A DNA stretch of 64,000 nucleotides from Candidatus Krumholzibacteriota bacterium (GTDB lineage: Bacteria; Krumholzibacteriota; Krumholzibacteriia; Krumholzibacteriales; WJIX01). Position numbers and translations under genes: made by a program. Of this stretch, positions 1 through 47,012 are shown piece after piece. The notes under the pieces are model-generated. The model was not told the origin of the DNA. It made no database searches and saw only the letters and a list, made by a program, of their open reading frames with translations. Numbering within the stretch: position 1 is the first letter of the stretch; each line of letters begins with the position of its first letter. The stretch is from contig JAXHNR010000001.1 in NCBI GenBank assembly GCA_034520215.1, positions 732,560-796,559 of the forward strand. Reading direction: 5' to 3'.

Positions 1-186
1 AAAGAGATTCTAAGGGCTGATTACTGTCTGCGGGCATTACCGCTAAAAGAGGGCGATCATAAGATCAATTTTAATTATCAACCTAGAGTGATAGAAGCTT
101 CGTTAACATTATCGATTATAAGCTTTATATTGTCAGTGTTTTTGTCTATAGCCGGGTTTTTAATATTCAGGAGAAAGGTCGGTTGA
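1..186 (+). CDS. 3' end of an upstream membrane protein (partial; hydrophobic C-terminal segment), function unknown
   Basis: Frame 1 is open from the window edge to the TGA at 184-186 (…LTLSIISFILSVFLSIAGFLIFRRKVG*). Its stop overlaps the TTG start of the next gene (TTGA), consistent with operon packing. Confidence 0.3.
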   Translation, partial: KEILRADYCLRALPLKEGDHKINFNYQPRVIEASLTLSIISFILSVFLSIAGFLIFRRKVG

Positions 187-914
187 AATTGGATGCTCTT
201 GTTGTAATCCCCACGTATAATGAAGAGGAGAATGTTCGGGAGATAATAAGCATAGTTCTGGGAGTTTCGGACAATCTGGGAGTATTAATTGTTGATGATA
301 ACTCTCCGGATGGAACTGGCGAGATTGCCGAGAGAATAGCAGAGGAAGATGAAAGAGTTAACGTTATTCACAGGCAGGGTAAAATGGGTTTGGGGTCAGC
401 TTATATAGCCGGGTTCAAATGGGCTTTGACGAACACTCCAGCAAAATATATTTTCGAGATGGATGCCGATTTTTCCCATAACCCGGAGGATATCCTCAGG
501 TTTCTCGATGCAATCCGAAATAACGATCTGGTGGTTGGATCCAGATATCTTAAGGGGATAACAGTTGTCAACTGGCCCCTGCGCCGGTTGATTCTGAGTT
601 ACGGAGCGAATCTATATACAAGAATTATTACGGGGCTTCCGCTCACAGATTCTACCGGGGGCTTTAAATGTTTCAGGCGCGAAGTCCTGGAAAAAATGCC
701 ACTCGAAAAAATTCACAGCGATGGATATTCATTTCAGATCGAGATGAATTACCTATGCTGGAAAAAGGGTTTCCGAATCAAAGAGATTCCTGTAGTTTTT
801 ACCGATAGAAGAGTCGGCGTCTCTAAAATGTCGAAAAAGATTGTTTGGGAAGCTGTTTTTCTGGTATGGCGTTTAAGATTTATGAGTATAAGCCATATGA
901 AAAAGTTTAAATAA
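183..914 (+). CDS. GT2 polyprenyl-phosphate sugar synthase (Dpm1/Ppm1/ArnC/GtrB-like; dolichol-phosphate mannosyltransferase family)
   Basis: TTG start preceded by an AGGAGA ribosome-binding site. The N-terminus VVIPTYNEEENV…DDNSPDGT and an FEMDADFSHNPED DxD-type motif are typical of Dpm1-like GT2 enzymes. Length is 243 aa. Confidence 0.75.
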   Translation: MKLDALVVIPTYNEEENVREIISIVLGVSDNLGVLIVDDNSPDGTGEIAERIAEEDERVNVIHRQGKMGLGSAYIAGFKWALTNTPAKYIFEMDADFSHNPEDILRFLDAIRNNDLVVGSRYLKGITVVNWPLRRLILSYGANLYTRIITGLPLTDSTGGFKCFRREVLEKMPLEKIHSDGYSFQIEMNYLCWKKGFRIKEIPVVFTDRRVGVSKMSKKIVWEAVFLVWRLRFMSISHMKKFK

Positions 915-940
915 TTCTAATTTAAAAAGACAAATTCTTT

Positions 941-3016
941 ATGGATCTTTCAATAGTTATTGTTACTTACAACAGCAAGAATGTAATTGGAAAATGCATT
1001 TCCAGTTTGAAAGAATATTCTCCTTCCTGTAATTATGAAATAATAGTAATAGATAATGCCAGTAAAGACGGTACGCCTGAATTTGTAAGCAGCGAATTCA
1101 ATAATGTCAGGGTAGAAGCAAACAGTAGAAACAAAGGATATTCAGGGGGAGTAAATCAGGGGGTTTCCCTTTCAAAAGGACGTATGGTTTTGATCCTTAA
1201 TCCCGATATAGTAGTAAGAGAGAAATCTATAGACAGATTATTTGATTTTATGGAAAAGACACCGGACGCGGCGATGGTAGGGTCAAAGCTGCTTAACTCT
1301 GATGGATCTCTGCAATATTCCTGCCGGTCTTTTTATACGATAAAGGCTCTTTTTCTCCGGCGGACATTCTTAGGCAAGCTGTTTCCAAGAGCTAAGTCAT
1401 TGCGCAGGCATCTCATGCTGGATTATGATCATCAAAAAACCAGAAGAGTGGACTGGATTCTTGGAGCCTGCATGATGGTCCGCGCAGAAGTAATTGAAAA
1501 AATCGGGATGATGGATGAAAGGTTTTTCCTTTATTTTGAAGATGTTGACTGGTGTTACCGGATAAAACAGTTTGGATGGAATGTTTATTATCTGCCGCGG
1601 TCCGTTATGACTCATTTATATATGAGATCGAGTTCACGTTCCATGTTCCGTAAACCGTTCTTGATTCATCTTCTCAGTTTGTTGAAATATTATGATAAAT
1701 GGAATGTGGTATTCTATTTTTTCAAGAGACACAGGGCGATGCTAAAATCACTGACATTTGTTATTGTCGATATTTTGGCAATTAACGCGAGTTTCTTCCT
1801 GGCATATTGGCTTCGCGCGATCGCGGACTCCTTTTTCGCGCATGGTTTGTATCCACTGTCCTGGTATTACTATTTTATTTATTTCTATAACATTATATTT
1901 TTCTTCTCATTCCTTTTCGGAAAGCTGTATAGTATCAGGCGTGAGACAAGTTCTATAGAGGAATTCAGCAGAATCATAAAAGCAGTCCTTGTTTCATTGA
2001 CTGTGATAATGACTTCCACCTATCTGCTTCGTATTAGAATATATTCAAGGGTGATCATACTGGGCCAAGGTGTTTTTGGAATTATTATTGTTTTTACCTT
2101 TAGAAAATTAATTCGAACAGTACACCGGTTATTTGTTGAAGCCGGATTTGACCGCAAAAGGGTGGGGCTGGTTGCCAAAAGGGAAGAAACGGAAACTTTT
2201 CTAGAATCTGTTTCTTCTTCCCCTGAGCTGGGATTAGATATCGCCGGACATATTAATTACGAAGAGAATTCTTTGGGTACACCCGATGAAATTGTGGAAA
2301 TTATTGATAGATTTAAAATTCATGAAATATTTATTTTCCCGTCATTCGAGAACACTGATATAATGTTCACCTTAGTATCAAGCAATAAATTCAGTACTAT
2401 TCAGATAAGGATCGTTTCGCCTATTGCTCGTTTCCTGAGCGACAGAGTAAGGGTCGACAATATAGGAGGGGATTATCTGTTCTCTGTTGAGAAGGGCTCT
2501 GCTTTTCAATTGAGAAAGTGGATAATACGTGTTTTTGACATTTCCCTGTCTTCTTTGCTATTACCCATTTCAACAGTACTTTCTTTGCTTTTGAAGTTGT
2601 ACGGAAAGTGTAGAGTTAATATCTCCTTTTATAGCGAGAGGAGATTTGCGGGAGGTAAAAGAAGAATATTGTGGCCCAGGATAGTATTCGAGTCAGGCAG
2701 GGAGGCAAGTGATATTTTCAAGCCCGGGTTATATTTCTCCGTATTGAAAGGAAAGTTAAGTTTTGTGGGAGCTCCTGCTCTTCTCGCCGAGGATAGTATA
2801 ACACACTTTTGCTCAGAGGGCGCCTATTACAAACCGGGGATTACAGGACGATGGAGAATTTCGCCTACCGGCAACTTTCCCGCTTTAATCGAAGAAGAGA
2901 TAGTTGCACTGCAAAAACAGTCTTTAACAAATTATATATTATTAATATTTAAATCGTTTTTAGTATCCTTGTCAGGGACTTACCCCGAATGGTTTTATAT
3001 TGAGGATGGGGAATAA
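941..3016 (+). CDS. Bifunctional fusion of an N-terminal GT2 glycosyltransferase to a WbaP-like polyprenyl-phosphate phosphoglycosyltransferase (transmembrane segments, a CoA-binding-like cytoplasmic domain and a C-terminal Bac_transf domain)
   Basis: The N-terminus IVIVTYNSKNVI…IDNASKDGT with an EDVDW DxD motif marks a GT2 domain. The middle carries several hydrophobic helices. The C-terminus aligns by eye to PglC/WbaP (KRxFD-like RVFDISLSSLLL; xVLKGxxSxVGxP seen as FSVLKGKLSFVGAPA; KPGITGW seen as KPGITGRWRI). Confidence 0.6.
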   Translation: MDLSIVIVTYNSKNVIGKCISSLKEYSPSCNYEIIVIDNASKDGTPEFVSSEFNNVRVEANSRNKGYSGGVNQGVSLSKGRMVLILNPDIVVREKSIDRLFDFMEKTPDAAMVGSKLLNSDGSLQYSCRSFYTIKALFLRRTFLGKLFPRAKSLRRHLMLDYDHQKTRRVDWILGACMMVRAEVIEKIGMMDERFFLYFEDVDWCYRIKQFGWNVYYLPRSVMTHLYMRSSSRSMFRKPFLIHLLSLLKYYDKWNVVFYFFKRHRAMLKSLTFVIVDILAINASFFLAYWLRAIADSFFAHGLYPLSWYYYFIYFYNIIFFFSFLFGKLYSIRRETSSIEEFSRIIKAVLVSLTVIMTSTYLLRIRIYSRVIILGQGVFGIIIVFTFRKLIRTVHRLFVEAGFDRKRVGLVAKREETETFLESVSSSPELGLDIAGHINYEENSLGTPDEIVEIIDRFKIHEIFIFPSFENTDIMFTLVSSNKFSTIQIRIVSPIARFLSDRVRVDNIGGDYLFSVEKGSAFQLRKWIIRVFDISLSSLLLPISTVLSLLLKLYGKCRVNISFYSERRFAGGKRRILWPRIVFESGREASDIFKPGLYFSVLKGKLSFVGAPALLAEDSITHFCSEGAYYKPGITGRWRISPTGNFPALIEEEIVALQKQSLTNYILLIFKSFLVSLSGTYPEWFYIEDGE

Positions 3017-5304
3017 TGAAATATTTTATTCTATTGATTGCCGCGGCAGTTATATTTCCCGGTTCAGTGGTCCGCGCTGATATAAACTGGGATGTTTATA
3101 TATCTCAAAGCAAGGTAAACGCGATAGAGGTGGTGGGGGATAGTCTATGGTGTGCTACGGACGGCGGAATTATGCTGTTTGACAAGGGTGATTCGGTCTA
3201 TACCTCTTATTTAAACGGTCTTGAATTACGATCGAGTAATGTGGAAGCGGTTACTGTTGACGCGAATAATGATATCTGGGCGGGATTCAGAGGACACGGT
3301 GTAGCCCGTATAAGAAATACAGGGCAGGAGGCGAATTGGTATACGGAAGAATACGGTTTAATAAGTGACAGTGTAACCTGTATAGCCAATGTAGATAATG
3401 AAATATACTATGGGACAGTGAAAGGTATAGGTAAATTTGTGGAAAAGATTCCTTCAGGGGAAATGGTGCTTACAGATAGTTTGAGCGGTTCAACTATAAA
3501 TGATATTTTTGCTGTCAACGATACTATTTTATGGGTAGCTGGTTCGGACGGCGTGTCGAGATTCAACAGAGAAAGTTTTGATTATGATTTCTTTCCTCTC
3601 AGCAATGCTGTTTCTCTATGCTCTTTTAACGGTAATATTTATTGTGCCACAGACAGCACCATACAGTTTTTAGATGACGGAAAGTGGTCAGTGTTGGGAT
3701 TTCCCTCCGGCCCCGACAAATATCCGTTTGTTGCTGTAGCCTCCGGAGGCGGGGAGCTCTTTTGTATAACAGCGGACAGACTTTATAATTGGGACCTTTC
3801 ATCATCTGTATGGCGGAGCGTTGATTTCGTAGGAATGAAGGGTTTATTCTATTCTGAATATAAATTATCTGGGAGGTTCAATCTGAGAGCCCTTGGTATT
3901 GACAATGCGGGTATGCCCTGGATTGGCGGTGATAGCGCGGAGAGACCCGGAAGAGGAGTACACATCTGCTCTTATGACGGAGGCGCATGGATAACGAGGA
4001 ATCCGGGAGGACTTAATTCTAATATAATCAGAAGAGTCGATATGGACCCCGAGGGAGGGGTATGGGTTAGTACGACTTTTTTTGGAGTTTGTTATAATTC
4101 AGGGAATGACAACTGGATTTCATATATAGATTCCCTGTCCTATCTCAATTATAACATTGCTCTTATCTGTGATTCAAACGGAAGGCTGTGGAGTAGCGCG
4201 CTTGAAAATCCACTTGATATGGTTGAACTTGGAGAACGGCTTGTTGCTGAAGATGACAGGTGGAATAGATTTACCAGAGATGAAGACGGAATATCTTCGA
4301 GGCATATAAATATCGCGGAAGACCCCGCCGGTAATATCTGGTTTCTTTCTGATGACGATTATCCTTCGAAAGGATGGGGGATAGATATTGTAAACGCGTC
4401 CGCGACCGAGTGGATAAGTATAACACCGAGTAACAGTGATATTGCAGGAGGCAATGTAAGGGACTGCGTTTTTGATGGTTCCAGCGCTTATCTGGCTATC
4501 AATGATTACGGCGTTCAAGTGTGGAACACAGGGGGATTTGAATGGTCATCACTTAAGGATCGAAGTGATGATTATTGGTATACTGCTGTTGATCAAACAG
4601 ATCTTTCAAGTACTGAACTGAACGCTCTTGAGATTATTGAAGATAATTTATGGGTGGCGAGCGGGGGAGAATTATTGAAACAGGGTAGTAGTGGAAATTT
4701 GATAATATACACAAGCGATTTGACCGATGAGAAGAGGAAGATATTAAATAATGAGGTAAATGATTTAGATAGGGATGATTTCGGGAATTTATGGGTTGCA
4801 ACAAGCGCCGGATTGAATATTATTGACAAGAATGGTGAAGTTAAGGGAATTTATACGACTTATGATTACTGGAAATCTAATTTTCAGATCACATATCCCA
4901 ATTCAGTGATTTCACCCCTTCCCGATGCTTATTGCAAATCCCTTGCTTTCGATGGAGTGAACGACAAAATGTGGGTTGGAACGGGGAAAGGTATCGCCGG
5001 TATTGATATGGGAATTCTTTCACCGGAACAAAGCCCCCTTTCGGAATTATTTCTTTATCCAAATCCGGTATATTGTCACAACGGTGATGATGAACTGAAG
5101 ATTTCTGGTATATCGGGCATTGTGGATGTGGAAATTTACAATATCGAAGGAGAGCTTGTACACGAAAAGGAGAATATTTCTGACGGAGAAGTGATATGGG
5201 ATATTCTTACAATTAATGGATTTAAGGTCGTCTCCGGCATATATATTGTTAGGGTTATCGGAAATAACAGTTCAGAGATAAGAAAGGTTGCGGTTGTCAG
5301 GTGA
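3016..5304 (+). CDS. Secreted beta-propeller protein (Reg_prop/Y_Y_Y-type repeats) with a Por/T9SS-type C-terminal sorting domain
   Basis: Signal peptide MKYFILLIAAAVIFPGSVVRA. Repeated blades of the form IWAGFRGHGVARI, IYYGTVKGIGKF, LWVAGSDGVSRF. The C-terminal roughly 80 aa (LFLYPNPV…IEGELV…SGIYIVRVIGNN…RKVAVVR) matches the Por_Secre_tail pattern (YPNPF…G.YFY.V). Confidence 0.6.
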   Translation: MKYFILLIAAAVIFPGSVVRADINWDVYISQSKVNAIEVVGDSLWCATDGGIMLFDKGDSVYTSYLNGLELRSSNVEAVTVDANNDIWAGFRGHGVARIRNTGQEANWYTEEYGLISDSVTCIANVDNEIYYGTVKGIGKFVEKIPSGEMVLTDSLSGSTINDIFAVNDTILWVAGSDGVSRFNRESFDYDFFPLSNAVSLCSFNGNIYCATDSTIQFLDDGKWSVLGFPSGPDKYPFVAVASGGGELFCITADRLYNWDLSSSVWRSVDFVGMKGLFYSEYKLSGRFNLRALGIDNAGMPWIGGDSAERPGRGVHICSYDGGAWITRNPGGLNSNIIRRVDMDPEGGVWVSTTFFGVCYNSGNDNWISYIDSLSYLNYNIALICDSNGRLWSSALENPLDMVELGERLVAEDDRWNRFTRDEDGISSRHINIAEDPAGNIWFLSDDDYPSKGWGIDIVNASATEWISITPSNSDIAGGNVRDCVFDGSSAYLAINDYGVQVWNTGGFEWSSLKDRSDDYWYTAVDQTDLSSTELNALEIIEDNLWVASGGELLKQGSSGNLIIYTSDLTDEKRKILNNEVNDLDRDDFGNLWVATSAGLNIIDKNGEVKGIYTTYDYWKSNFQITYPNSVISPLPDAYCKSLAFDGVNDKMWVGTGKGIAGIDMGILSPEQSPLSELFLYPNPVYCHNGDDELKISGISGIVDVEIYNIEGELVHEKENISDGEVIWDILTINGFKVVSGIYIVRVIGNNSSEIRKVAVVR

Positions 5305-6716
5305 ATAAGAGAAAAAGAATTCTCATAGTGGGAGCGGGCGAAGCCGCTAGAATGGTAGTTTCCAGGATAAAGGAAAACAAAGAACTTGGATTGGTTGTTG
5401 TTGGCCTGCTGGATGATAATCCTGACCTTGACGGAAAAAAAATTGACGGTATTCCAGTTTTCGGGAAGACCTCACGTCTGGAAGAGTTTGTACTGGAGAA
5501 AAAGATCGATGAGATTATAATAGCGATCCCGACGGCTCCGCGCCCTTTTGTAAGGAATATGATACATCTATGCGGTAGGGCGGGGACTCCATATAAGATA
5601 GTTCCCGGTGTCATGGAGATAATCAAGGGTGATGTCAGCATTAATCAGATTCGTGAGGTTCGTGTTGAGGATCTCCTGGGAAGAGAGACGGTTGATTTTG
5701 AACTCGATTATATCAAACCCGCTCTATCCGGAAAGCGAGTGCTTGTAACTGGAGCTGGCGGAACGATAGGGAGTGAACTCTGCCGTTATATTTCTTATGT
5801 AAACCCCGCTGAACTTATACTTCTGGGGAGGGGGGAGAACAGAATATTTGAGATTGAAGAAGAGTTGAAAACAAAATTCAAAGATATTAAGATATCGACA
5901 GTCATTAACAATCTGAGGAATCCGCAGAGGACTAAAAGACTGATTGCTACCATTTCCCCTGATATCATCTATCATACTGCCGCCCATAAGCATGTTCATT
6001 ATATGGAAGAAGATCCCGAGGAAGCAATTATAAATAATGTAGGTACAACTCTCAATCTTGCCAGGGCTTCCGCAGAAGCTGAGACGGAGCGTTTTGTATT
6101 TATCTCTACAGATAAAGCGGCGAATCCCCGAGGTGTAATGGGGGCCTCTAAACGCGTTATGGAGTTGTATTTTTCGACTCACGGGCGCATGGATAAATGC
6201 CGTTTTATATCTGTGCGTTTCGGTAATGTGATAGGGAGCGCGGGTAGTGTTGTTCCCCTGTTTCTCAAACAGATTGAAAGGGGAGGCCCCGTTACGGTGA
6301 GCCATCCTCAGGCCGCTCGCTACTTTATGACAGTAAAAGAAGCGGCGCTTCTGGTACTTGAGGCGTCTGTAATGGGGGATGGAGGAGAGATATTTATTCT
6401 CGATATGGGAGAGGCAATAAACATCCTTGAGATGGCAAAAGATATTATCGTACTTACAGGCCATATTCCGGAGAAGGAGATATCAATAGAATTTACAGGA
6501 CTGCGTCCCGGAGAGAAGCTCCTTGAAGAGCTTGTAAATGTGGAGGAAAATCTGGTTTCGTCTGAACAGGAGAAGATATTCCTCGCCCGGTCCTCGTCAC
6601 AAATCCCCGCTGAATTGGATGAAAAGATAGAAAAAATGGTGCAATTTGCCGTAGAGGGAAAGAAAAACAAGATGTTGGAGATCTTAAGAACTCTAGTTGC
6701 CGGTTTATATAATTGA
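5301..6716 (+). CDS. CapD/PglF/WbpM-like nucleotide-sugar 4,6-dehydratase/epimerase (Polysacc_synt_2 family), soluble short form
   Basis: GTG start overlapping the upstream stop (GTGA). The N-terminus ILIVGAGEAAR is CoA-binding-like, and VLVTGAGGTIGSELCRYI is the Rossmann NAD(P) motif of the CapD family. Length is 471 aa. Confidence 0.75.
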   Translation: MNKRKRILIVGAGEAARMVVSRIKENKELGLVVVGLLDDNPDLDGKKIDGIPVFGKTSRLEEFVLEKKIDEIIIAIPTAPRPFVRNMIHLCGRAGTPYKIVPGVMEIIKGDVSINQIREVRVEDLLGRETVDFELDYIKPALSGKRVLVTGAGGTIGSELCRYISYVNPAELILLGRGENRIFEIEEELKTKFKDIKISTVINNLRNPQRTKRLIATISPDIIYHTAAHKHVHYMEEDPEEAIINNVGTTLNLARASAEAETERFVFISTDKAANPRGVMGASKRVMELYFSTHGRMDKCRFISVRFGNVIGSAGSVVPLFLKQIERGGPVTVSHPQAARYFMTVKEAALLVLEASVMGDGGEIFILDMGEAINILEMAKDIIVLTGHIPEKEISIEFTGLRPGEKLLEELVNVEENLVSSEQEKIFLARSSSQIPAELDEKIEKMVQFAVEGKKNKMLEILRTLVAGLYN

Positions 6717-6743
6717 TATTATTAACCCCGGAGAAGTAATATT

Positions 6744-7697
6744 TTGGTCAAAATAGAAATTGAAGAAAGAGTTGAAGAAGGCGAAATATACAAACTTTTA
6801 GATAAGATTAAATTCCGCAATTTTTTTAATACTCCCATCTGGATTGATATTCTCGAATCATCGTTTAGTGAGTTTTCAGCTCGTTGGATTACCGCCAGAA
6901 TAGGAAAAACCCTTTTAGGCTTTATGCCTGTTATTTTTATCAAAAGGAATATCTTTTATTTTATTCGCAGTCTCCCTTTCGGAACATACGGAACACCGGT
7001 AGCAGAAGATGGAGATATTTCAAAGAGTTTGGTAGAGCAGTTTCTAAAGCTTTCAACATCTTTCAGGTGTCTTAACGCGACCGCTGTAATATTTGATCCG
7101 GATTGGGATGAATGGCTCTCTTCTGCCGGGCTGTACGAAGTCGCCGAATGCAGAATTGCTGATTTGAAAGGCGGTTTTGAGGATTATAGAATGGTTAAGC
7201 TAAGCAGTTCTAAAAGGAAAGCATGCAATGGCTGCCAAAGAGCGGGTGTTGTTGTAAGACCTCTGAAAACAAAGGGGGAAGTTCTAAACTTTTATGATAT
7301 CTACACCGATATGGCTGCCCGATGGGGAGGTGTTCATCCTTTTCCCCTAAGTCTTTTTATGGAATTGTTCGTAAAGGGAGGCAGCAATGTTCTGATTCTG
7401 GGCGCCTTTCTCGATAACAGGTTATTGGGAGGTCATGTGGATTTTTATTATGGAGATATAGCTCAGGCATGGCAGGCCGGCGTTTCTGAAGAAGCTAAAA
7501 GTTACGGAGTTTCCCCTTATCTTGTTCTTCGTGCTATAGAGGAAGCATATAGGAGAAAGATGAAATTCTTTAATATGGGAAGCAGCGGGGGAGACGAAGG
7601 ATTGATTTATTTTAAAGAGTCGTTGGGTGGAAGAGAATTCAACTATCCGGTAGTAAAATCAGGGAAAAGATGGTGGGAATGGATAAGAAACCTGTAG
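6744..7697 (+). CDS. FemAB-family / Acetyltransf_6 (BioF2-like GNAT fold) protein typical of exopolysaccharide loci
   Basis: TTG start with a GGAGAAG ribosome-binding site. At 317 aa with FemAB-like N- and C-lobes (…FNMGSSGG…), it resembles the FemAB-related proteins associated with exopolysaccharide loci. The family assignment is made by eye only. Confidence 0.4.
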   Translation: MVKIEIEERVEEGEIYKLLDKIKFRNFFNTPIWIDILESSFSEFSARWITARIGKTLLGFMPVIFIKRNIFYFIRSLPFGTYGTPVAEDGDISKSLVEQFLKLSTSFRCLNATAVIFDPDWDEWLSSAGLYEVAECRIADLKGGFEDYRMVKLSSSKRKACNGCQRAGVVVRPLKTKGEVLNFYDIYTDMAARWGGVHPFPLSLFMELFVKGGSNVLILGAFLDNRLLGGHVDFYYGDIAQAWQAGVSEEAKSYGVSPYLVLRAIEEAYRRKMKFFNMGSSGGDEGLIYFKESLGGREFNYPVVKSGKRWWEWIRNL

Positions 7698-9220
7698 AAT
7701 CAGGGCAATCAAGGCTAGTGGAAAATACAGTATCTCTTACTGTATCGGGGATATTCAGTGTTGTCTTTACCCTGACACAACTTGGACTTCTCAGCCGTTT
7801 TTTAGGGGGTGAAGAGTTTGGCCTCTTTATCGCTCTAAGAGGATTGCATATCCTTCTTGCCACATTAATTCTCCTTGGTTTGCCGCAGGTACTTATGAGA
7901 TTTATACCTTCCTATCAGGGAAGAGGAATGAGAAAAAAGGCTTTTCTTCTTTTCCTTTCCTCAACGGGGATCGTTCTGTTTCTAGGTGCACTGCTGTATT
8001 CTGCAGCAGATCTCTGGAAGGGATGGATGCCTTCGAGACTGACGGAATTGCTTATCAGCAGAGATATTATATTCTGGCTGACACTTGCTTCTATCACACT
8101 CGGACTTAAGTTGTTGCTTTACGGGGCATTCAAAGGGTTAAGGGTTATGAGCGCCCAGATGGTTTTGGAGCTTTCCTGTCTAGGTCTCTTTACGGGATAT
8201 ATTTTCTTTACAAGGAACAGTCTGAGTGTTATTTCGCTTTTCCGCGCGCTTTTTGTAATTAATTTTCTTGTCTGCCTTACGGGGTTTCCTTTCTATTTCA
8301 GTTTGTCAAAACGTCTGATCGGCAAAGAGATAATCAGGAAAGACAATATTATCCTTCCGAAATTATTTCCATACTGGGGAAATTGCCTTCTCTTGAGCTT
8401 TGTAGCGCTTGCTTTTACCGATATTGACCGTTTTGCAATGTCATCAATGCTTCCAGTAGCGATGATTTCCGTATTTCATATAGCTTCCAGGATAAATGTG
8501 TTTCTGAAGAGATTCCTGGGATTTCCAATTATTGCCCTTCAGCCTGAAGTGACAAGGCTTTATGAAGAAGGCAGGTGGGGTGAATTCAAAAGTAAAATTG
8601 TTCTTTTTACAAAAGTAACTTTTGTCGCTTCGTTGCTAATGGTTGCCGTAGTTGCAATTACGGGGGGTGATATTATATCGTTAATTGCCGGAACAGGATA
8701 TAAAAACGCCTATACAATTTTATTGATCCTTTTGCCGACAGTACCTATCGCCGCTTTCATTGCCCCCCTTCTGGTAACGATGAAGGGGCTGCATTATATA
8801 AAATGGGCACTTCTTTGTGATTTAATCTGGATGATCGTCTATTTTGGCGGATTTCCATTTTTTGTTTCCCGTTTGGGATTGAAGGGAATGGCGGTCGCCC
8901 AACTGATTGCTTCTATCACCCAGATGCTATGTGCCGTTCTGATAGCTCGAAAGCAGGGCTTCTACGGAGGTATAGGGAGACGTGTATTCCGCGTTATACT
9001 CATAGTCGCGGTTATAATACCTGTTGGTATTTCAGCCGCGACTCTCTTGGGTCTGTGGGTATCGTTGTTATCCTTCGCAATGTTCCCTTTTTTATGCCGA
9101 TTTGTCTTCGGGCAGTTAGGTTTGTTTGAACCCGATGATGTGGAGCAGATTCTTAGTTTGATAAAATTCCGGTGGGGTAAGAGAATTGCCGGATGGTTTT
9201 TTCAGTTTGAAGTAGCATGA
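7670..9220 (+). CDS. Wzx-like polysaccharide flippase / polysaccharide biosynthesis membrane protein (MOP superfamily)
   Basis: 516 aa and highly hydrophobic throughout, with roughly 12 or more predicted helices. It sits inside the glycan locus and overlaps the upstream gene. Confidence 0.55.
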   Translation: MVGMDKKPVESGQSRLVENTVSLTVSGIFSVVFTLTQLGLLSRFLGGEEFGLFIALRGLHILLATLILLGLPQVLMRFIPSYQGRGMRKKAFLLFLSSTGIVLFLGALLYSAADLWKGWMPSRLTELLISRDIIFWLTLASITLGLKLLLYGAFKGLRVMSAQMVLELSCLGLFTGYIFFTRNSLSVISLFRALFVINFLVCLTGFPFYFSLSKRLIGKEIIRKDNIILPKLFPYWGNCLLLSFVALAFTDIDRFAMSSMLPVAMISVFHIASRINVFLKRFLGFPIIALQPEVTRLYEEGRWGEFKSKIVLFTKVTFVASLLMVAVVAITGGDIISLIAGTGYKNAYTILLILLPTVPIAAFIAPLLVTMKGLHYIKWALLCDLIWMIVYFGGFPFFVSRLGLKGMAVAQLIASITQMLCAVLIARKQGFYGGIGRRVFRVILIVAVIIPVGISAATLLGLWVSLLSFAMFPFLCRFVFGQLGLFEPDDVEQILSLIKFRWGKRIAGWFFQFEVA

Positions 9221-10512
9221 AAGAAAAACGAATATTAGTAATTGTGAATTTTTTCCCTCCCGCCGGAGGGGGTGGAGTCTATCGCCCTCTTTCTTTTGTA
9301 AAGTATTTAGCAAGGTTTTCCTGGAAGGTTACCGTTCTTACACCAAAAGTGGGTGAATTCTGGATTTCAGACCCCGGGCTTGAAGATCAGATACCGAATG
9401 ACGTTAAAGTAGTGCGGACATTATCAATTTCTCCGTCACGCTTTTTGAATGCTGTTAGAAAGAAAAACGGAAAAGCCAGGCCGAAGAGATCAACCGGCAG
9501 TTTTGAACTTCTCAGACGGCTCGGGGAAATATTTTTTATCCCTGATACATATGTGGGGTGGGCACCCTTTGCCTACAGGGCCGCTTCGAAACTGTGCCGC
9601 AAAGAGGATTTTGATGTTATACTCTCTACAAGCCCTCCCGACAGCACACATCTCGCGGCGGGAAAGATTTCACGTAAATATCGTATTCCCTGGATTGTAG
9701 ATTTCAGGGATCCATGGATATCCCTTTATCTTAGAAATCCCATAACGTCAGTTCACAGAAAGTTGCATCAAATGATGGAAAGGTACACCGTTGAAGCTGA
9801 GAGGATTTTGGTGACAACTGATTGGCAGAGGAGGAAACTTATTGAATTATACCCGGGATGCAGTGTGGAGAAAATCCCTAACGGCTACGAAGAAGAAGAT
9901 TTTGCCGGGCTTGAAGATGTTAAACCCGACCCGGGAAAATTTACTATATTGCATGCAGGTATGCTGACACTTGAAAGAAAGTCAGAAAACTTCCTCAAGG
10001 GAGTTTCCCTGTTCTTAAATCGAACTGAAAAAGCAAAAGGATTACTCAGAATTATCTTCGCGGGCGGAAGAGAATCAGCTAATGAGCAGTGGGTAAGTAA
10101 ATTGGGGTTGGAAAATATTGTTGTTTTCAAAAATAATCTCCCTCACCGCGAGTGTGTCAGGCTCGAAAAGAGCAGTCATGTGCTTTTGCTGATAAAACAC
10201 GACGATAGGCGATATAATGGGCTTATACCCGGGAAACTCTATGAATATATTGGCGCGGCACGCCCCATACTTGCCGTTGTTCCGGATGGAGAAGCAAAGA
10301 ATATTGTACAGGATCTTGATAGAGGTGAAACAGCTCAAGTAAATGACCCGGAAGATATTGCCGGTAAAATTGAGATTCTATTTGATCTCTATAAAACACG
10401 CAAACTCGACAGCAGCTATTCGCTTGAAGATGTGCCGAAATATTCAAGGAGATCTGAAGCGGAAAGATTGAATAATCTTCTCTCTGAGGTGGTGTATAAA
10501 GATGAACAGTAA
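9217..10512 (+). CDS. GT4 family glycosyltransferase
   Basis: The N-terminus ILVIVNFFPPAGGGGVYRP… (Glyco_trans_4-like) and a C-terminal retaining-GT Rossmann half. The ATG overlaps the upstream stop (ATGA). Confidence 0.6.
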   Translation: MKEKRILVIVNFFPPAGGGGVYRPLSFVKYLARFSWKVTVLTPKVGEFWISDPGLEDQIPNDVKVVRTLSISPSRFLNAVRKKNGKARPKRSTGSFELLRRLGEIFFIPDTYVGWAPFAYRAASKLCRKEDFDVILSTSPPDSTHLAAGKISRKYRIPWIVDFRDPWISLYLRNPITSVHRKLHQMMERYTVEAERILVTTDWQRRKLIELYPGCSVEKIPNGYEEEDFAGLEDVKPDPGKFTILHAGMLTLERKSENFLKGVSLFLNRTEKAKGLLRIIFAGGRESANEQWVSKLGLENIVVFKNNLPHRECVRLEKSSHVLLLIKHDDRRYNGLIPGKLYEYIGAARPILAVVPDGEAKNIVQDLDRGETAQVNDPEDIAGKIEILFDLYKTRKLDSSYSLEDVPKYSRRSEAERLNNLLSEVVYKDEQ

Positions 10513-11989
10513 GAATGCCTTGATAATTATCAGCGCTGTAATACTTTTTCTTGTTATCAGTGCACCCTTAAAAGATACAGTTGTTGATGACACCTATATA
10601 CATCTTCAATATGCGCGCAACCTGGCTGTTGATAACCAATTAGCTTTTAATAAAGGCGAGCCGTCTTACGGGGCAACAAGCCCGCTGTGGGTTTTTCTTC
10701 TTTCCGTGGGGTATAAGACGGGGGTCGATCTTCTTCTTCTGTCTCATATTCTATCGGAAGTGTTCGCCGTTTTGTCCATAATACTTATTTATTATTATGT
10801 TTTAATGGTTGAAAGGAAAAGGACGGCGGCCTCGGCAGCCGCGATTATCATGTCCGTGGAAGCCTGGCTTGTAAGGTGGAGCTCGGTGGGTATGGAGACT
10901 TCACTTGCTGTTTTCATGGTCCTTGTCGTATTTATTCTGTCCCTTAAAACATTAAGATCGATAATATATTCATCTTTGTTCGGTTTATCCCTCTTTTTTT
11001 CAGCTCTCGCCAGGCCGGAAATAATTCTTCTTGTTCCAATCGCCGCAGTTATTTTCCTGTTTAGAAAAAGAGAGAAATATTCCGTCAGATTAACGTGGCT
11101 GATTGTGTTTGTTTCAGCTTATTTTCTCTGGCTTATATTCATCAAGAATCATACGGGCACTTTTTTTCCACTTACCGCAGGGGCGAAACGAGGCTGGCTC
11201 TTTTTCAGTCCGGCTAATTTGAAGAGAGTGTTGCTGCCGCTAAAAATTATAGCAGCCACTTTAATTATACCTTCAGCATCTCTTATTATCTGGGTAATTT
11301 TTTACTGGGTAAAAAGGACCGAAGCTCTGAAAGAGGATATGATTTCAAATAATCTTCTCTTTCCTCTGGCGTGGGCTGCGATTCTGCCAATGGCTTATGT
11401 TCTATTAGACTTTACTATTCTTTCCAGATATCTTGTGCCGACCGCGCCTGCTATTATCGTTCTCGGAGTAGTTTCGGTCAGCCGGTTAATCTCATATTTT
11501 GCCTGCAGCCTCAAATTTGAACGGTTGATTCTTGGAATTTTTACAATATTCGTTGTACTGCAGAACGTTATCTTCTATTTTCTGATCGTTGTGCCGCCGA
11601 CAAGAAATTTTACCGACGATATCAATGACGTTCTCATTCCGATGGGAAAATGGATGCGTGATAATACTGCCGCGGAAGCCGTTGTGGCAACACCCGATAT
11701 CGGAGCTATAGGTTATTATTCTGAGAGAGAAGTGCTGGATCTTGGGGGGCTTGTAACTCCAGAAATAAACGGGATGCGAGATTCACTGACTGTTGAAAGG
11801 ATCGTGTCTGAAGGTTTTTTCCTTGAATACGATCCGGATTATCTAATTGATAGAAACCCCTCAGCCCGAAGATTCTCCGGGAAAATTATCAGGGGTGTAG
11901 AGTTTATACCTTTAATGAGCGATACAATTTCAACGCGGGGCGTACGTAAATCAGACCCCGTTGTTTATACTCTCTATCGGCTTGAATAA
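10502..11989 (+). CDS. GT-C fold integral membrane glycosyltransferase (ArnT/PMT_2-like, uses a polyprenyl-phosphate sugar donor)
   Basis: 495 aa with about 11 or more transmembrane helices. The first periplasmic-loop acidic motif VVDDTYIHLQYARNL is analogous to the ArnT/PMT DE/DD motif. It pairs logically with the Dpm1-like GT2 at 183-914. Confidence 0.5.
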   Translation: MNSKNALIIISAVILFLVISAPLKDTVVDDTYIHLQYARNLAVDNQLAFNKGEPSYGATSPLWVFLLSVGYKTGVDLLLLSHILSEVFAVLSIILIYYYVLMVERKRTAASAAAIIMSVEAWLVRWSSVGMETSLAVFMVLVVFILSLKTLRSIIYSSLFGLSLFFSALARPEIILLVPIAAVIFLFRKREKYSVRLTWLIVFVSAYFLWLIFIKNHTGTFFPLTAGAKRGWLFFSPANLKRVLLPLKIIAATLIIPSASLIIWVIFYWVKRTEALKEDMISNNLLFPLAWAAILPMAYVLLDFTILSRYLVPTAPAIIVLGVVSVSRLISYFACSLKFERLILGIFTIFVVLQNVIFYFLIVVPPTRNFTDDINDVLIPMGKWMRDNTAAEAVVATPDIGAIGYYSEREVLDLGGLVTPEINGMRDSLTVERIVSEGFFLEYDPDYLIDRNPSARRFSGKIIRGVEFIPLMSDTISTRGVRKSDPVVYTLYRLE

Positions 11990-12201
11990 AAACGGAATTA
12001 CTAAAGGGGCCGGGTGATAAAGATTGATCTACACCTTCTTTAAGAAGGGAGAATCGCTTTAGGGGCAGTTATTTTATAGTGCAAATTTATAAGGGGGGTT
12101 GCTATCTTCGAATTAGCTGAAAAAGAGTTTTGGATAAGCGGGTTAGAAGAAAACGAGATTGATTTAATATTGAATATAAGATTACATTAAACCTAATAAA
12201 T

Positions 12202-13110
12202 ATGAATATAAAAATAAGTCATAATAAGAATAATACAAATGTCAAACAGATAAAGAAGATTACGTGGACAGGGATTGCCTTAAACTTATTTCTGGCGTTT
12301 ATTAAATTCCTGTTTGGTTTTATTGGAGCGAGTCACGCGGTAATTGCTGACGCGGTTCACAGTATCTCAGACCTTTCTACTGATCTTGCCGTTCTACTGG
12401 GAGTAAAATATTGGAGTGCTCCGCCGGATAAAAACCATCCCTACGGCCATAGGCGTATTGAAACATTAATAACTCTCGCGATTGGTATTATCCTGGCATT
12501 TATTGCTGTCGGATTGGGATATAACTCTCTAACATCAGTGCGAGAAATACATAGAGAGCAAACAAGCTGGATCGCCGTTATTGGACCTCTTCTATCGATA
12601 GTTTTCAAGGAAATTCTCTATAGATGGACTTTAAAAATAGGTAATCGCGTAAAATCAACAGCTGTGATTGCAAATTCAATGCATCATCGTTCCGATGCTT
12701 TAAGTTCATTACCTGCATTAATTGCTGTTACGGTATCTTCTCTTAATCCGGAGCTGTCATATATTGATGATATCGGCGCCTTGATAATTTCAGTTTTTAT
12801 TCTAAAGGTTTCCTGGGATATAGTCAGGCCGTCATTAATTGAGTTGACAGATCATGGCGCGTCTGAGAAGGATCGTGAATTGATCAAGAATATAGTTATG
12901 AATATAGAAAGCGTAAAGGATGTACACGCCATACGGACACGTAAGTTCAGCTCTAATCTTGTCGTGGATCTCCATGTACTTGTTGATCCGGATATTTCAG
13001 TTCGAGAGGGTCATTGTATATCTCAGGAAGTTGAAGATGAGATATTAAATAAGGGCCCCGACATCATTGATGTAGTTGTCCATATAGAACCTTTCGAGAG
13101 CGGGCCGTAA
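12202..13110 (+). CDS. Cation diffusion facilitator (CDF) family metal efflux transporter
   Basis: HAVIADAVHSISD…HPYGHRRIETL and the second HxxxD motif AVIANSMHHRSDALSS, followed by a C-terminal cytoplasmic domain. Length is 302 aa. Confidence 0.8.
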   Translation: MNIKISHNKNNTNVKQIKKITWTGIALNLFLAFIKFLFGFIGASHAVIADAVHSISDLSTDLAVLLGVKYWSAPPDKNHPYGHRRIETLITLAIGIILAFIAVGLGYNSLTSVREIHREQTSWIAVIGPLLSIVFKEILYRWTLKIGNRVKSTAVIANSMHHRSDALSSLPALIAVTVSSLNPELSYIDDIGALIISVFILKVSWDIVRPSLIELTDHGASEKDRELIKNIVMNIESVKDVHAIRTRKFSSNLVVDLHVLVDPDISVREGHCISQEVEDEILNKGPDIIDVVVHIEPFESGP

Positions 13111-13441: not shown

Positions 13442-13876
13442 ATGCAGAATTTCCTCGGTGATTATGAATGTTCAATAGATTCGAAGGGCAGAATGCTCAT
13501 CCCTTCCAGATTCAGGCGCCTTATACCGGCGGATAACGATAATAAATTTGTTATCAGTCTCGGAAAGGAACAGTGTCTTAATTTGTATCCCCTCAACGAA
13601 TGGAGAGATGATGTTGAAAAGAGACTTCATCAGCTCCCTCCGGGCCTGAAGAAAAGAAAGGTAATACGTTTTTACAGCAAGATGTCCCGTCATGTCGAAT
13701 CTGATAAATCCGGCAGGATCGCTATACCGCGCAAATTCCTTGAAGTAATAAGTAATCCCGGGAAGGTAGTTGCAGTCGGACTTCTAAACTATATAGAAAT
13801 ATGGTCTTTTGATGATTACAGAGATATCAGCATAAAAATTGAAAATGATTTCCAGAAACTGGAATGGGAATATTAA
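13442..13876 (+). CDS. mraZ: Transcriptional regulator MraZ
   Basis: MQNFLGDYECSIDSKGRMLIPSRFRR… shows the duplicated MraZ/SpoVT-AbrB-like fold signature. First gene of the dcw cluster. Confidence 0.9.
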   Translation: MQNFLGDYECSIDSKGRMLIPSRFRRLIPADNDNKFVISLGKEQCLNLYPLNEWRDDVEKRLHQLPPGLKKRKVIRFYSKMSRHVESDKSGRIAIPRKFLEVISNPGKVVAVGLLNYIEIWSFDDYRDISIKIENDFQKLEWEY

Positions 13877-13924
13877 TAGAATTCACCGATATTTTATTTC
13901 CCTCTACGCCGGAGTGGAATCTGA

Positions 13925-14836
13925 GTGTTTCACATACCTGTTATGAAGAAAGAGATTTTAGATCTCCTGATAACGAACCCGGAAGGGATTTACGTGGACT
14001 GCACGGTTGGAACAGGAGGGCACACGGAGGGCATTCTCAAAGCGAAAAGAAATCGGAGAATTTCGGTTATTGGGATAGACCAAGATGGTATGGCTTTGGA
14101 TATTGCCCGGAAAAGATTAGAGAGATACGGAGAACGGGTAAGGTTGATTCAGGGGAATTTCCGAGACATAGAAAAATATCTAGCCGGAGAGAAGTACGAT
14201 GGATTCCTTCTGGATTTGGGAATTTCATCACTGCAGCTCGACGATAGTTGCCGCGGTTTCAGTTATATGAAGGACGGTCCAATTGATATGGCAATGGGAG
14301 AGGACGCGAATTCGGTCAGTGAAATGCTGGCCGGCGCGGACAGAGGAAAAATAAGCAGGATTATAAAAGTGTATGGTGAGGAAAGAAAACACGGAATGAT
14401 AGCAAAAAGTATAGTTAAAATGCGAAGTTCGGAGGCAATAGAGAGGACGGGTCAATTGGTAGAAGCTGTTAAGAAGGTTGTCAGTCCTAACAGGCTTTAC
14501 AGTACGCTTTCGAGAGTTTTTCAGGCTTTCAGGATTTGGGCCAATGATGAGATTGAAAACCTGAAGCTTTTTCTGCCCCAGACATTGAGGCTTTTAAGTC
14601 CGCGTGGGAGAATCGCTGTTATCTCATACCATTCTATCGAAGATCGCATCGTTAAGAGATTCTTCATCCACCAGGCGAAGAAATGTGTTTGCCCACCGGA
14701 TTTTCCGGTGTGTGTCTGCGATAAACGAGCAGAATTAAAGATCGTAACGAATAAACCGGTTTTACCATCTATTTTGGAAATTGAGAATAACAAGAGAGCA
14801 AGAAGCGCTAAACTGCGCGTAGCTGAAAGGATTTGA
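13925..14836 (+). CDS. rsmH: 16S rRNA (cytosine1402-N4)-methyltransferase RsmH
   Basis: HIPVM…YVDCTVGTGGHTEGIL… is the classic RsmH/MraW N-terminus. It follows mraZ. Confidence 0.9.
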   Translation: MFHIPVMKKEILDLLITNPEGIYVDCTVGTGGHTEGILKAKRNRRISVIGIDQDGMALDIARKRLERYGERVRLIQGNFRDIEKYLAGEKYDGFLLDLGISSLQLDDSCRGFSYMKDGPIDMAMGEDANSVSEMLAGADRGKISRIIKVYGEERKHGMIAKSIVKMRSSEAIERTGQLVEAVKKVVSPNRLYSTLSRVFQAFRIWANDEIENLKLFLPQTLRLLSPRGRIAVISYHSIEDRIVKRFFIHQAKKCVCPPDFPVCVCDKRAELKIVTNKPVLPSILEIENNKRARSAKLRVAERI

Positions 14837-14837
14837 T

Positions 14838-15266
14838 ATGAGCAGCAAGAAGAAATGTTATAGTTTGCAGATGTTAGTAAGCAGAATGCTCACGGGGAAG
14901 ATAAGTCAGCTGAATTTTTTGATACTCTTAGGATTGACGGCCAGCCTCGCCATGTTATATATCGGACTTCACGTCTATTCATATTCACTTTCTGAAGAAA
15001 TAAGCGGATGTTTAAAAAAGCGCACCTTCTTAAGAGAAAAAAAGGTATGGCTGCTTGCTGATTATAACAGACTTATAGCTCCTGAAAGGATTATCCCGGA
15101 AGTGGAAAGAATGGGGATGAAGCAGGGATCGTCCATGGATGTAAACAAGCTCACTCTGTATAGGAATAAGCGGCTGTTCCGGAATGTAAGTGAAGACCCC
15201 GAGAAAGTTACGAGCATAGCCAAAGAAAAAATCTTTATTTTTGGTGATGGCAATGTGGAGAACTAA
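14838..15266 (+). CDS. ftsL: Cell division protein FtsL-like (small bitopic membrane protein)
   Basis: A single transmembrane helix (FLILLGLTASLAMLYIGLHVY) followed by a coiled-coil-like segment. It lies between rsmH and ftsI. The assignment rests on position and topology. Confidence 0.5.
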   Translation: MSSKKKCYSLQMLVSRMLTGKISQLNFLILLGLTASLAMLYIGLHVYSYSLSEEISGCLKKRTFLREKKVWLLADYNRLIAPERIIPEVERMGMKQGSSMDVNKLTLYRNKRLFRNVSEDPEKVTSIAKEKIFIFGDGNVEN

Positions 15267-18853: not shown

Positions 18854-18875
18854 GCTTGAATGGTTAGCCGAATCA

Positions 18876-22708: not shown

Positions 22709-22712
22709 TTAA

Positions 22713-25027: not shown

Positions 25028-25039
25028 AAAGAGTTATAT

Positions 25040-27161: not shown

Positions 27162-27188
27162 GAGATTGCAAGAAGGTGAGGCTGTAAT

Positions 27189-28430: not shown

Positions 28431-28431
28431 G

Positions 28432-38549: not shown

Positions 38550-38671
38550 AAGCCCCCTCTATATGTATATTTTTTGTTTGTATGTTCCATCCAGATTCAT
38601 TAATTTATAGATGAGATATAATATTGACCATATACTGGAGATTCAGATACTTGGTTCATACGGAGGTTGTA

Positions 38672-46910: not shown

Positions 46911-47012
46911 TATTATGTTTAATATTTACATCAGCGAACGGTATCTCCTGTAATTGTTCAATGCGGGATTTGTTTTTCTAATTGCTGATTTACCGGGAAG
47001 CAGGGTGTTTTA

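Follow-up and report, generated by a model that had tools for sequence, protein, structure and literature searches.

A PorZ-family gene inside a conserved Krumholzibacteriota glycan operon points to a possible linker pathway for type IX secretion cargo

What does a glycan operon make when it encodes no polymerase, and why should it carry, in its middle, the gene of a secreted surface protein? The locus that raises this question lies at the left end of a 64,000-nucleotide stretch of DNA (the window) from a Candidatus Krumholzibacteriota bacterium (assembly GCA_034520215.1, contig JAXHNR010000001.1, positions 732,560 to 796,559), and consists of genes named g1 to g8, all on the plus strand. Our answer, to which we give roughly even odds (about 0.5), is that the product of the operon is a short glycan with an aminoacylated amino sugar, that this glycan is the acceptor for type IX secretion system (T9SS) cargo, and that the whole is a variant of the anionic lipopolysaccharide (A-LPS) linker system of Porphyromonas.

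The starting point is the central gene, g3. Its product of 762 aa, against 758 aa for the chain of the Porphyromonas gingivalis PorZ structure 5m11, comprises a signal peptide, two beta-propellers and a type-A T9SS C-terminal domain (CTD), as laid out by the secondary structure of an AlphaFold2 (AF2) model. Pfam reports Reg_prop beta-propellers and Por_Secre_tail, TIGR04183 matches with an E-value of 2e-10, and the top NCBIfam match is T9SS_PorZ (NF052228) at 93 bits. A phmmer search aligned the C-terminal 130 residues with 5m11. The AF2 model, built with 41 sequences (pLDDT 88.6), has 5m11 as its top Foldseek match over the full length (E 3.4e-29, TM-scores 0.57/0.58), while the periplasmic domains of Bacteroides hybrid sensors, which resemble PorZ, reach only about 0.38. 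In a reciprocal test, a profile of the Krumholzibacteriota g3 orthologues was run against 1.84 billion representative proteins and retrieved many proteins of 720-750 aa that align over their whole length without interruption. The 63 of them that were tested all match the PorZ model; ten were scored one by one, and six exceed the NCBIfam PorZ cut-off with 271-300 bits, one of these six (P0225) also carrying the Pfam domain PorZ_N_b_propeller. At the level of profiles and structure, g3 is a distant member of the PorZ family, not an equivalog. An earlier note on this DNA had taken the protein for a cargo or glycosylation target of the locus; the NCBIfam match, the structure 5m11 and the orthologue profile make it a PorZ homologue instead.

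PorZ of P. gingivalis (structure in PMC5121618) binds A-LPS and passes it on to the sortase PorU (PMC8545088), which, with the family membership of g3, speaks for a cargo-anchoring role of the operon. In another lineage (locus L050, 165-5619), an 836-aa PorZ-like gene is followed by an opposite-strand gene of the Wzy_C (O-antigen-ligase) family and then by a DegT aminotransferase gene, which suggests that the association of PorZ with glycan genes extends beyond the operon studied here.

From left to right, the locus contains the following features:

1..186, plus strand: 3' end of a gene for a YfhO-family membrane glycosyltransferase (GT-C type), continuing past the left window edge
183..914, plus strand: g1, soluble family 2 glycosyltransferase (GT2) of 243 aa, polyprenyl-phosphate sugar synthase of the Dpm1/PpgS/ArnC type by its Pfam, NCBIfam and PDB matches
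941..3016, plus strand: g2, GT2 joined to a WbaP-type scaffold and a degenerate-looking phosphoglycosyltransferase-like domain, 691 aa (Pfam, NCBIfam, alignment)
3016..5304, plus strand: g3, PorZ-family protein, 762 aa (NCBIfam, AF2/Foldseek, orthologue profile)
5301..6716, plus strand: g4, soluble UDP-N-acetylhexosamine (UDP-HexNAc) 4,6-dehydratase of the PglF/CapD/WbpM type with an N-terminal CoA_binding_3-like domain (Pfam, NCBIfam)
6744..7697, plus strand: g5, FemX/VimA-family (Acetyltransf_6) transferase (Pfam, NCBIfam, profile against PDB)
7670..9220, plus strand: g6, Wzx-type flippase of lipid-linked glycans, MOP superfamily (Pfam, conserved position)
9217..10512, plus strand: g7, family 4 glycosyltransferase (GT4) of GT-B fold (Pfam)
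10502..11989, plus strand: g8, glycosyltransferase of GT-C fold with a small periplasmic C-terminal domain, 495 aa (AF2/Foldseek)

Each of the eight complete open reading frames (ORFs) stands exactly where the earlier note had placed it, and its domain calls (GT2, Por-tail propeller, 4,6-dehydratase, FemAB, Wzx and GT4) were confirmed by Pfam and NCBIfam. Its count of nine genes within 183-11989 has to be corrected, since that span holds eight co-directional, mostly overlapping ORFs, and the ninth, truncated at its 5' end, occupies 1-186. The junctions between g1 and g8 comprise five overlaps (1, 4, 28, 4 and 11 nt), in line with the 1-30 nt claimed for all of them, and two gaps of 26-27 nt, which are not. 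Gene g3 shares 1 nt with g2 and 4 nt with g4, an arrangement of translational coupling. Within 1-12000, all plus-strand ORFs of at least 80 aa are accounted for except one nested in g7. Several ORFs of 80-246 aa nested in or antisense to the locus genes (9449-9700; on the minus strand of 5297-6670, for example 5724-6464, minus, 246 aa) look like by-products of composition. Promoter and terminator scans of the locus were uninformative.

At its left end the locus runs on. Positions 1-183 are open in frame 1 and encode the exact C-terminus of P0332, an 820-aa 'YfhO family protein' (PF09586) from the same 1.57-Mb contig; the TGA that ends this gene (184-186) overlaps the TTG at which g1 starts (183-185). 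Wherever a locus extends far enough upstream, a YfhO orthologue lies immediately 5' of g1, and in relatives with still more upstream sequence four more conserved genes stand 5' of it, encoding a short-chain epimerase/dehydratase (SDR), a 330-aa GT2, a GT4 and another GT2; these four are known from the relatives and, if this genome has them, would lie beyond the window. The locus therefore is not bracketed at its 5' end by the Dpm1-like gene, as had been proposed, given that the YfhO-family gene continues upstream; it extends beyond the window edge, and the window holds the 3' two-thirds of a conserved operon of at least nine genes here and 13 in the relatives.

The relatives come from a scan of species-representative genomes with a PorZ-like alignment, which gave 44 loci of the Krumholzibacteriota type, some of them labelled Latescibacterota. 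Searches with the window proteins (tblastn) found g1 to g8 in the same order in about 40 genomes, on every contig of sufficient length, and down to 27-30% identity for g3. With the order kept in so many genomes, the arrangement is far beyond chance. The exceptions are few: locus L023 lacks g4, locus L041 retains only g2 and g3 side by side with the rest of the locus dispersed, and a deep clade carries an inserted gene. The preserved order of the eight genes, the coupling of g3 to both its neighbours and the adjacency of g2 and g3 that outlasts dispersal in L041 all count in favour of the cargo-anchor reading. About 7 kb 3' of the g2-g3 pair, L041 (Latescibacterota bin977) also encodes a PNGase F-like peptide-N-glycanase (19169-20230; N-glycanase_C, E 4e-32), with a protein containing a family 9 carbohydrate-binding module (CBM9) in between.

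Which sugar might such a pathway make? The dehydratase g4 matches Polysacc_synt_2 (E 1.3e-99), with PseB and FnlA as its best NCBIfam families and a 'STDKA' motif. The product of g5 matches Acetyltransf_6 and FemAB in Pfam; its best NCBIfam family is TIGR03019 (pepcterm_femAB) at 49.7 bits, to which the L033 orthologue scores 93 bits, and a profile of g5 orthologues finds as its best PDB entries FemX (E 2.4e-10) and an 'aminoacyl-tRNA-dependent peptide synthase' (E 4.5e-10). VimA has been reported to match TIGR03019 as well, and it sets whether serine or glycine is placed on the linking sugar of P. gingivalis or Tannerella forsythia, the cargo then being amide-linked at the free amine of that amino acid (PMC7468200). 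The connection between g5 and VimA consists in this shared family match. By homology, the predicted role of g5 is to transfer an aminoacyl group from aminoacyl-tRNA to the nitrogen of an amino sugar. That g5 and VimA share TIGR03019 as best family (PMC7468200), and that the g5 profile is closest to FemX, is a second reason for the cargo-anchor reading.

A third reason comes from the deep clade (L033, L034, L036-L040, L043 and L044), where one extra gene stands between g4 and g5. An aminotransferase had been predicted beforehand, and the gene encodes a DegT_DnrJ_EryC1 protein (E 2e-112) with ArnB and PseC as best NCBIfam families. The resulting order of dehydratase, DegT enzyme and FemX-like transferase reads as a bacillosamine pathway with its acetyltransferase replaced and, like the PorZ-like gene that adjoins Wzy_C and DegT genes in L050, counts for the cargo-anchor reading. 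In Campylobacter, the bacillosamine branch of the Pgl system is formed by the dehydratase PglF, the aminotransferase PglE and the acetyltransferase PglD. The gene order of the deep clade is alike, with a PglF-like dehydratase, a DegT/PglE-like aminotransferase and an N-acyl transferase, but the third enzyme is FemX/VimA-like here and not a left-handed beta-helix acetyltransferase. The window locus itself differs further by having no aminotransferase, and no PglB-type oligosaccharyltransferase with a WWDYG motif was identified.

The two remaining genes of this group fit the assembly and export of a lipid-linked glycan. The flippase g6 scores 31.9 bits against Polysacc_synt (cut-off 28.2) and keeps its position across the loci, and g7 matches Glyco_trans_4_4, Glyco_transf_4 and Glycos_transf_1, with the PEP-CTERM-associated stp3 family (TIGR04063) as a weak best NCBIfam match. 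The best NCBIfam families of g5 and g7 are thus those of the exopolysaccharide (EPS) loci of PEP-CTERM/exosortase systems, for which synthesis of a sugar modified with an amino acid, serving the sortase-type attachment of proteins, has likewise been proposed (PMC7468200). Unlike such loci, the operon has g5 and g7 scores far under the equivalog cut-offs, no exosortase, and a T9SS CTD as its sorting signal.

The closest characterised parallel is the A-LPS linker system. In the P. gingivalis model, a single, non-polymerised linker unit is built on undecaprenyl pyrophosphate by WbaP, GtfC, GtfF and the GT4 enzyme VimF, and is flipped before Wzy and WaaL act (PMC13086638). The system of P. gingivalis and T. 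forsythia (PMC7468200, PMC13086638, PMC8545088) has in common with the Krumholzibacteriota operon a PorZ-family protein, a FemAB/TIGR03019 transferase, a GT4, a WbaP-like protein and a Wzx flippase, and in both the unit is single and non-polymerised. The combination of WbaP-like, GT4 and Wzx proteins with no Wzy, which matches the single-copy A-LS linker unit of P. gingivalis (PMC13086638), is a further ground for our reading. The A-LPS-specific genes named for P. gingivalis (vim operon, wbp genes, wbaP, gtfC, gtfF) are listed separately (PMC7468200/PMC13086638), whereas the Krumholzibacteriota set forms one operon that includes porZ. The sugar routes also differ, with a PglF-type dehydratase (and DegT) here, the uronic-acid route of WbpA/B/E/D in P. 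gingivalis, and no VimE here. Two polyprenyl-phosphate sugar synthases and two GT-C enzymes, the lack of Wzy, Wzz and WaaL, and a phosphoglycosyltransferase (PGT) domain without its catalytic dyad set the Krumholzibacteriota operon apart as well. The porZ gene of P. gingivalis presumably lies apart from its A-LPS-specific genes. The earlier description of the locus as analogous to but distinct from A-LPS-based T9SS anchoring is probably the wrong way round, since the two look partly homologous (PorZ, TIGR03019, GT4, WbaP-like protein and Wzx).

How would such a glycan be completed? Neither the eight locus proteins, as had been noted before, nor the five upstream proteins of the relatives match any Wzy, Wzz/Wzc or Wza family in Pfam or NCBIfam. 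The locus does not belong to the Wzy-dependent O-antigen/capsule class, because these matches are absent and because the one unassigned membrane protein, g8, has a GT-C fold. The gene content fits the proposal of a short-oligosaccharide pathway, not a capsule, with periplasmic steps driven by polyprenyl-phosphate sugars.

The donor side of these steps begins with g1, the most conserved gene of the block (63-95% identity across loci). It matches Glycos_transf_2 (E 2.6e-33) and contains 'MDADFSHNP'; its best PDB match is the dolichyl-phosphate mannose synthase (DPMS) of Pyrococcus furiosus, 5mlz (E 3.6e-34, residues 5-232), followed by ArnC and GtrB. Its four top NCBIfam families (PpgS, AglJ, ArnC and dolichyl-P-hexose transferase) all score far under their equivalog cut-offs, the best at 78 bits against 370 for PpgS, and hence below the level that would specify the sugar. 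Judging from these matches g1 is a polyprenyl-phosphate sugar synthase, and its place in the Dpm1-like GT2 clade agrees with the earlier note.

On the acceptor side stands g8, which has no Pfam or NCBIfam match of its own. Thirteen of its 120 best homologues carry PF13231, and their source names are GT39, ArnT-like or arabinofuranosyltransferase. The AF2 model (pLDDT 90.2, pTM 0.91) has only GT-C enzymes among its top 33 Foldseek matches in the PDB (STT3/PglB, AftB, ALG9, ArnT, AftD, AftA, DPY19 and PMT), as predicted for this gene. The best E-value is 2.2e-8, and the query TM-scores of the 23 matches at E<=0.001 lie at 0.53-0.63 (one, AftA, at 0.47), too uniform to separate the GT-C subfamilies. 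At the sequence level the only PDB match is AftB, and it is weak (E 0.21). Residues D29-D30, invariant in 32 aligned sequences, are located in the model just after the first transmembrane helix (3-23) and before the first juxtamembrane helix (29-44). In this model g8 is a GT-C enzyme with an intact acidic motif in its first periplasmic loop. The possibility that it is a missed Wzy or WaaL is ruled out, as the model matches GT-C structures only.

A second GT-C enzyme is provided by the YfhO-family gene. A profile of this family gave no PDB sequence match, and hhalign (probability 0.3%) rules out at the sequence level that the YfhO-like protein and g8 are paralogues. YfhO proteins are of the GT-C type and are partnered with a GT2 polyprenyl-phosphate sugar synthase, as in CsbB-YfhO (PMC5836110, PMC8035078). 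The upstream YfhO-family gene is the most direct GT-C partner of g1, because its stop codon overlaps the g1 start. The pairing of a Dpm1-like enzyme with a GT-C enzyme thus stands as far as the identities of g1 and g8 go, and both occur together in every related genome with enough sequence, but the nearest partner of g1 lies outside 183-11989. The outcomes that the earlier note had named as refuting its proposal (g8 outside the GT-C families, g1 in another GT2 clade, no conserved co-occurrence of the two) were checked and did not occur. In the relatives, the 330-aa GT2 is a full-length synthase of the ArnC/GtrB type (ArnC E 6e-46, GtrB E 5e-34), giving the full cluster two polyprenyl-phosphate sugar synthases and two GT-C enzymes. 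The GT-C fold and invariant aspartates of g8, the upstream YfhO family and the two synthases together argue for periplasmic steps.

In CsbB-YfhO and GtlA-GtlB, a cytoplasmic GT2 makes a polyprenyl-phosphate monosaccharide that a GT-C enzyme uses outside the membrane (PMC5836110, PMC8035078). The coupling of the YfhO-family gene to the Dpm1-like g1 and the GT-C fold of g8 resemble this arrangement. The same three-component logic operates in GtrA/B/C, ArnC-ArnT and PpgS-Rv3779. Unlike those systems, the operon has two synthases and two GT-C enzymes, no small flippase of the GtrA/GtcA type (no GtrA-like match among the locus proteins in Pfam), and a setting within a Wzx-dependent pathway with PorZ.

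The GT-C enzymes could also be taken to glycosylate protein, as the earlier note proposed: the locus would carry out periplasmic glycosylation of the encoded surface protein or its anchor, with g8 as a protein O- or N-glycosyltransferase comparable to PMT/Ppm1, PglB or PgfS/PgfM. The strongest Foldseek E-values of g8 do belong to the oligosaccharyltransferases STT3 and PglB, the upstream ArnC-like synthase of the relatives matches PgfS, which is part of a protein glycosylation system, and source annotations call g8 homologues GT39. However, the TM-scores do not split oligosaccharyltransferases from AftB or ArnT, and g8 exposes no more than about 110 residues to the periplasm and lacks a WWDYG-type motif. 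In addition, the family of g3 has a known, different role (PMC8545088), and nothing marks g3 as a substrate. We therefore regard protein glycosylation as a distinctly improbable account of the locus.

The role of g2 is harder to place. Its N-terminal half is an intact, rhamnosyltransferase-like GT2 (Pfam/NCBIfam), and residues 276-554 match TIGR03025, with CoA_binding_3 at E 2.9e-9 and the transmembrane helices of the large-PGT architecture. Bac_transf, on the other hand, matches at 30 bits over model positions 95-177 of 179 only, the C-terminal half, and WbaP structures align to g2 only from 'LFNVLKG' onward. Monotopic phosphoglycosyl transferases conserve an Asp-Glu catalytic dyad (PMC10942596). 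Across 36 sequences of the g2 family, a conserved 'SD[ILFV]' stands where 'DE' is expected, with no Glu. The family also has no KFRTM-type Lys/Arg and no PRP Arg, motif positions that we take from established knowledge of PF02397. A working WbaP-type phosphoglycosyltransferase was accordingly rejected for g2, as its PGT half does not align to WbaP/PglC before 'LFNVLKG' and has no Asp-Glu dyad; of the fusion claimed earlier, the GT2 and the scaffold hold, while the PGT domain is half-matched and dyad-less.

Taken in its chromosomal context, the operon has a constant neighbour, as mraZ and rsmH of the division and cell wall (dcw) cluster follow it in every case. In the window a complete dcw cluster occupies 13442-29574, with mraZ, rsmH, a penicillin-binding protein with PASTA domains, murE, mraY, ftsW, murG, ftsQ, ftsA and ftsZ identified by Pfam; murF, murD and murC are assumed from the relatives, and ORFs of matching size are present. 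Between g8 and mraZ, at 12202-13110, lies a gene for a cation efflux transporter of the cation diffusion facilitator (CDF) family, whose best equivalogs MamM/MamB score about 170-180 bits, below cut-off. This gene is shared at that position only with the closest relative (L003), and many others have an S-adenosylmethionine (SAM)-dependent methyltransferase there.

Such a position invites two other explanations. According to the first, the operon makes a general and possibly essential envelope glycan (an O-unit or core extension of lipopolysaccharide, an S-layer glycan or another surface polymer) with no special role in anchoring T9SS cargo, and g3 would be a surface protein that binds or handles glycans, its use of the T9SS signal being incidental. 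Universal conservation directly 5' of the dcw cluster would suit this, as would the FemAB/TIGR03019 and stp3-type matches typical of EPS loci, the pairing of a polyprenyl-phosphate sugar synthase with a GT-C enzyme, which is a common module for decorating lipopolysaccharide or teichoic acid (PMC5836110, PMC8035078), and the fact that a CTD-profile scan saw no other T9SS gene in the window, the T9SS core not having been searched for. Against it, g3 belongs specifically to the PorZ family rather than being just any Reg_prop protein, and in all the genomes its gene lies translationally coupled within the operon. The lack of Wzy/Wzz speaks against a polymer, and a sugar bearing an amino acid is exactly what the sortase reaction needs (PMC7468200). 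On balance, a general envelope glycan seems to us possible but rather unlikely.

The second explanation ties the operon to the cell wall itself, as the source of a peptidoglycan-associated or division-linked secondary polymer: the FemX-like enzyme would modify a precursor of the muropeptide type, the MOP flippase export it and the GT-C enzymes decorate it. In all genomes the operon adjoins mraZ-ftsZ in the same orientation, the nearest solved relative of g5, FemX, acts on UDP-MurNAc-pentapeptide, and YfhO enzymes of Firmicutes glycosylate teichoic acids (PMC5836110). Yet the two clusters are parted in the window by a 212-nt gap and the CDF transporter gene, and in the relatives by a methyltransferase gene, to which L002 adds two opposite-strand genes. 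Moreover, g6 matches Polysacc_synt and no MurJ/MVIN-family match was returned for it, the PglF-type dehydratase and DegT enzyme point to a 6-deoxy amino sugar and not to a muropeptide, and PorZ would be left unexplained. This explanation appears very doubtful.

Several observations weigh against the cargo-anchor reading that we favour. The 93 bits of g3 fall short of the PorZ equivalog cut-off of 260. No DegT aminotransferase was found in the 64-kb window, so that neither the locus nor its surroundings account for the amine that g5 would acylate, and the relative L023 also lacks g4 in its locus. There is neither a VimE-like deacetylase nor a Wbp enzyme, and the chemistry departs from that of the only characterised example. 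The PGT-like domain of g2, having no catalytic dyad, leaves the locus with no initiating enzyme. Both TIGR03019-type FemAB proteins and stp3-like GT4s are found as well in exosortase/EPS loci without a T9SS. In the 64-kb window, the CTD profile built here found no other CTD protein, and PorU, PorV, Sov/SprA and PorK-N were not seen, with no search aimed at them. Finally, universal conservation beside the dcw cluster is to be expected just as much of any essential envelope polymer.

Mechanistically, the gene identities, folds, synteny and PorZ membership are the observed part of the cargo-anchor reading; the chemistry, the order of the steps and the link to cargo anchoring we infer from the family assignments and the gene order. 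First, the PglF-like g4 would convert UDP-HexNAc into a 4-keto-6-deoxy sugar, and a DegT aminotransferase, encoded in the locus in the deep clades and necessarily elsewhere in this genome, would yield the 4-amino sugar. The FemX/VimA-family enzyme g5 would then place an amino acid on the 4-amine, giving a linking sugar with a free alpha-amine similar to the seryl sugar of P. gingivalis. The GT2 and GT4 enzymes (g2, g7 and the upstream genes of the relatives) would build a short lipid-linked oligosaccharide, which g6 would flip. In the periplasm, the GT-C enzymes (the YfhO-like protein and g8) would finish or transfer the glycan, using polyprenyl-phosphate monosaccharides supplied by g1 and, in the relatives, by the second, ArnC/GtrB-like synthase. 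The GT-C enzymes would stand in for the Wzy/WaaL steps of the Porphyromonas pathway. Last, the PorZ homologue g3 would bind the product at the cell surface and present the acceptor to the sortase.

A bolder version can be drawn, which we consider unlikely. In it, the operon would be a self-contained, Wzy/WaaL-independent anchor route for the T9SS, in which a linking sugar of the 4-N-aminoacyl-bacillosamine type sits in a short glycan, the GT-C enzymes, fed by two polyprenyl-phosphate sugars, assemble this glycan or ligate it to a membrane anchor in the periplasm, and the dead PGT domain, coupled to PorZ, serves as a scaffold. Such a route would represent an ancestral or alternative mode of cargo anchoring that predates the LPS-based system of Bacteroidota.

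Elsewhere in the window, 44536-47837 encodes, adjacent to one another, a Wzi-like outer-membrane capsule-assembly protein (E 8e-16), a UbiA-family prenyltransferase and a BacA/UppP undecaprenyl-pyrophosphate phosphatase, which may represent further envelope or carrier-lipid functions. Two proteins, at 42171-43214 and 38624-39454, carry between them the Fibrobacter succinogenes major paralogous domain (E 2e-51) on one and a pre-peptidase C-terminal (PPC) domain on the other, and neither has a T9SS CTD detectable with our profile. A 372-aa protein at 39855-40973 weakly matches the Arf family of small GTPases (29.9 bits, cut-off 22.3). Across 1-64000, nearly all ORFs of at least 150 aa are on the plus strand, the GC skew is positive in every 2-kb bin and its cumulative curve rises monotonically, consistent with one replichore of strong gene-strand bias.

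The glycolipid anchor of the T9SS has been described chemically for P. gingivalis and T. forsythia, its genes not being presented as one locus (PMC7468200, PMC13086638), and no paper on the T9SS or on this locus in Krumholzibacteriota or Latescibacteria was found in the searchable library. Here a PorZ homologue shares one compact, phylum-conserved operon with a FemX/VimA-type transferase, a dehydratase, a flippase and glycosyltransferases, in a phylum other than those of the characterised cases. The operon also contains a conserved fusion of a GT2 with a pseudo-phosphoglycosyltransferase tightly coupled to porZ. If the cargo-anchor reading is true, the operon would lend independent genomic support to the role of PorZ in handling glycolipids, and would predict a new linking-sugar chemistry, in which a 4-amino-6-deoxy-HexNAc, instead of a diamino uronic acid, is aminoacylated. 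It would further introduce GT-C enzymes as replacements for the Wzy/WaaL steps, and would offer a defined set of genes for the in vitro reconstitution of cargo anchoring.

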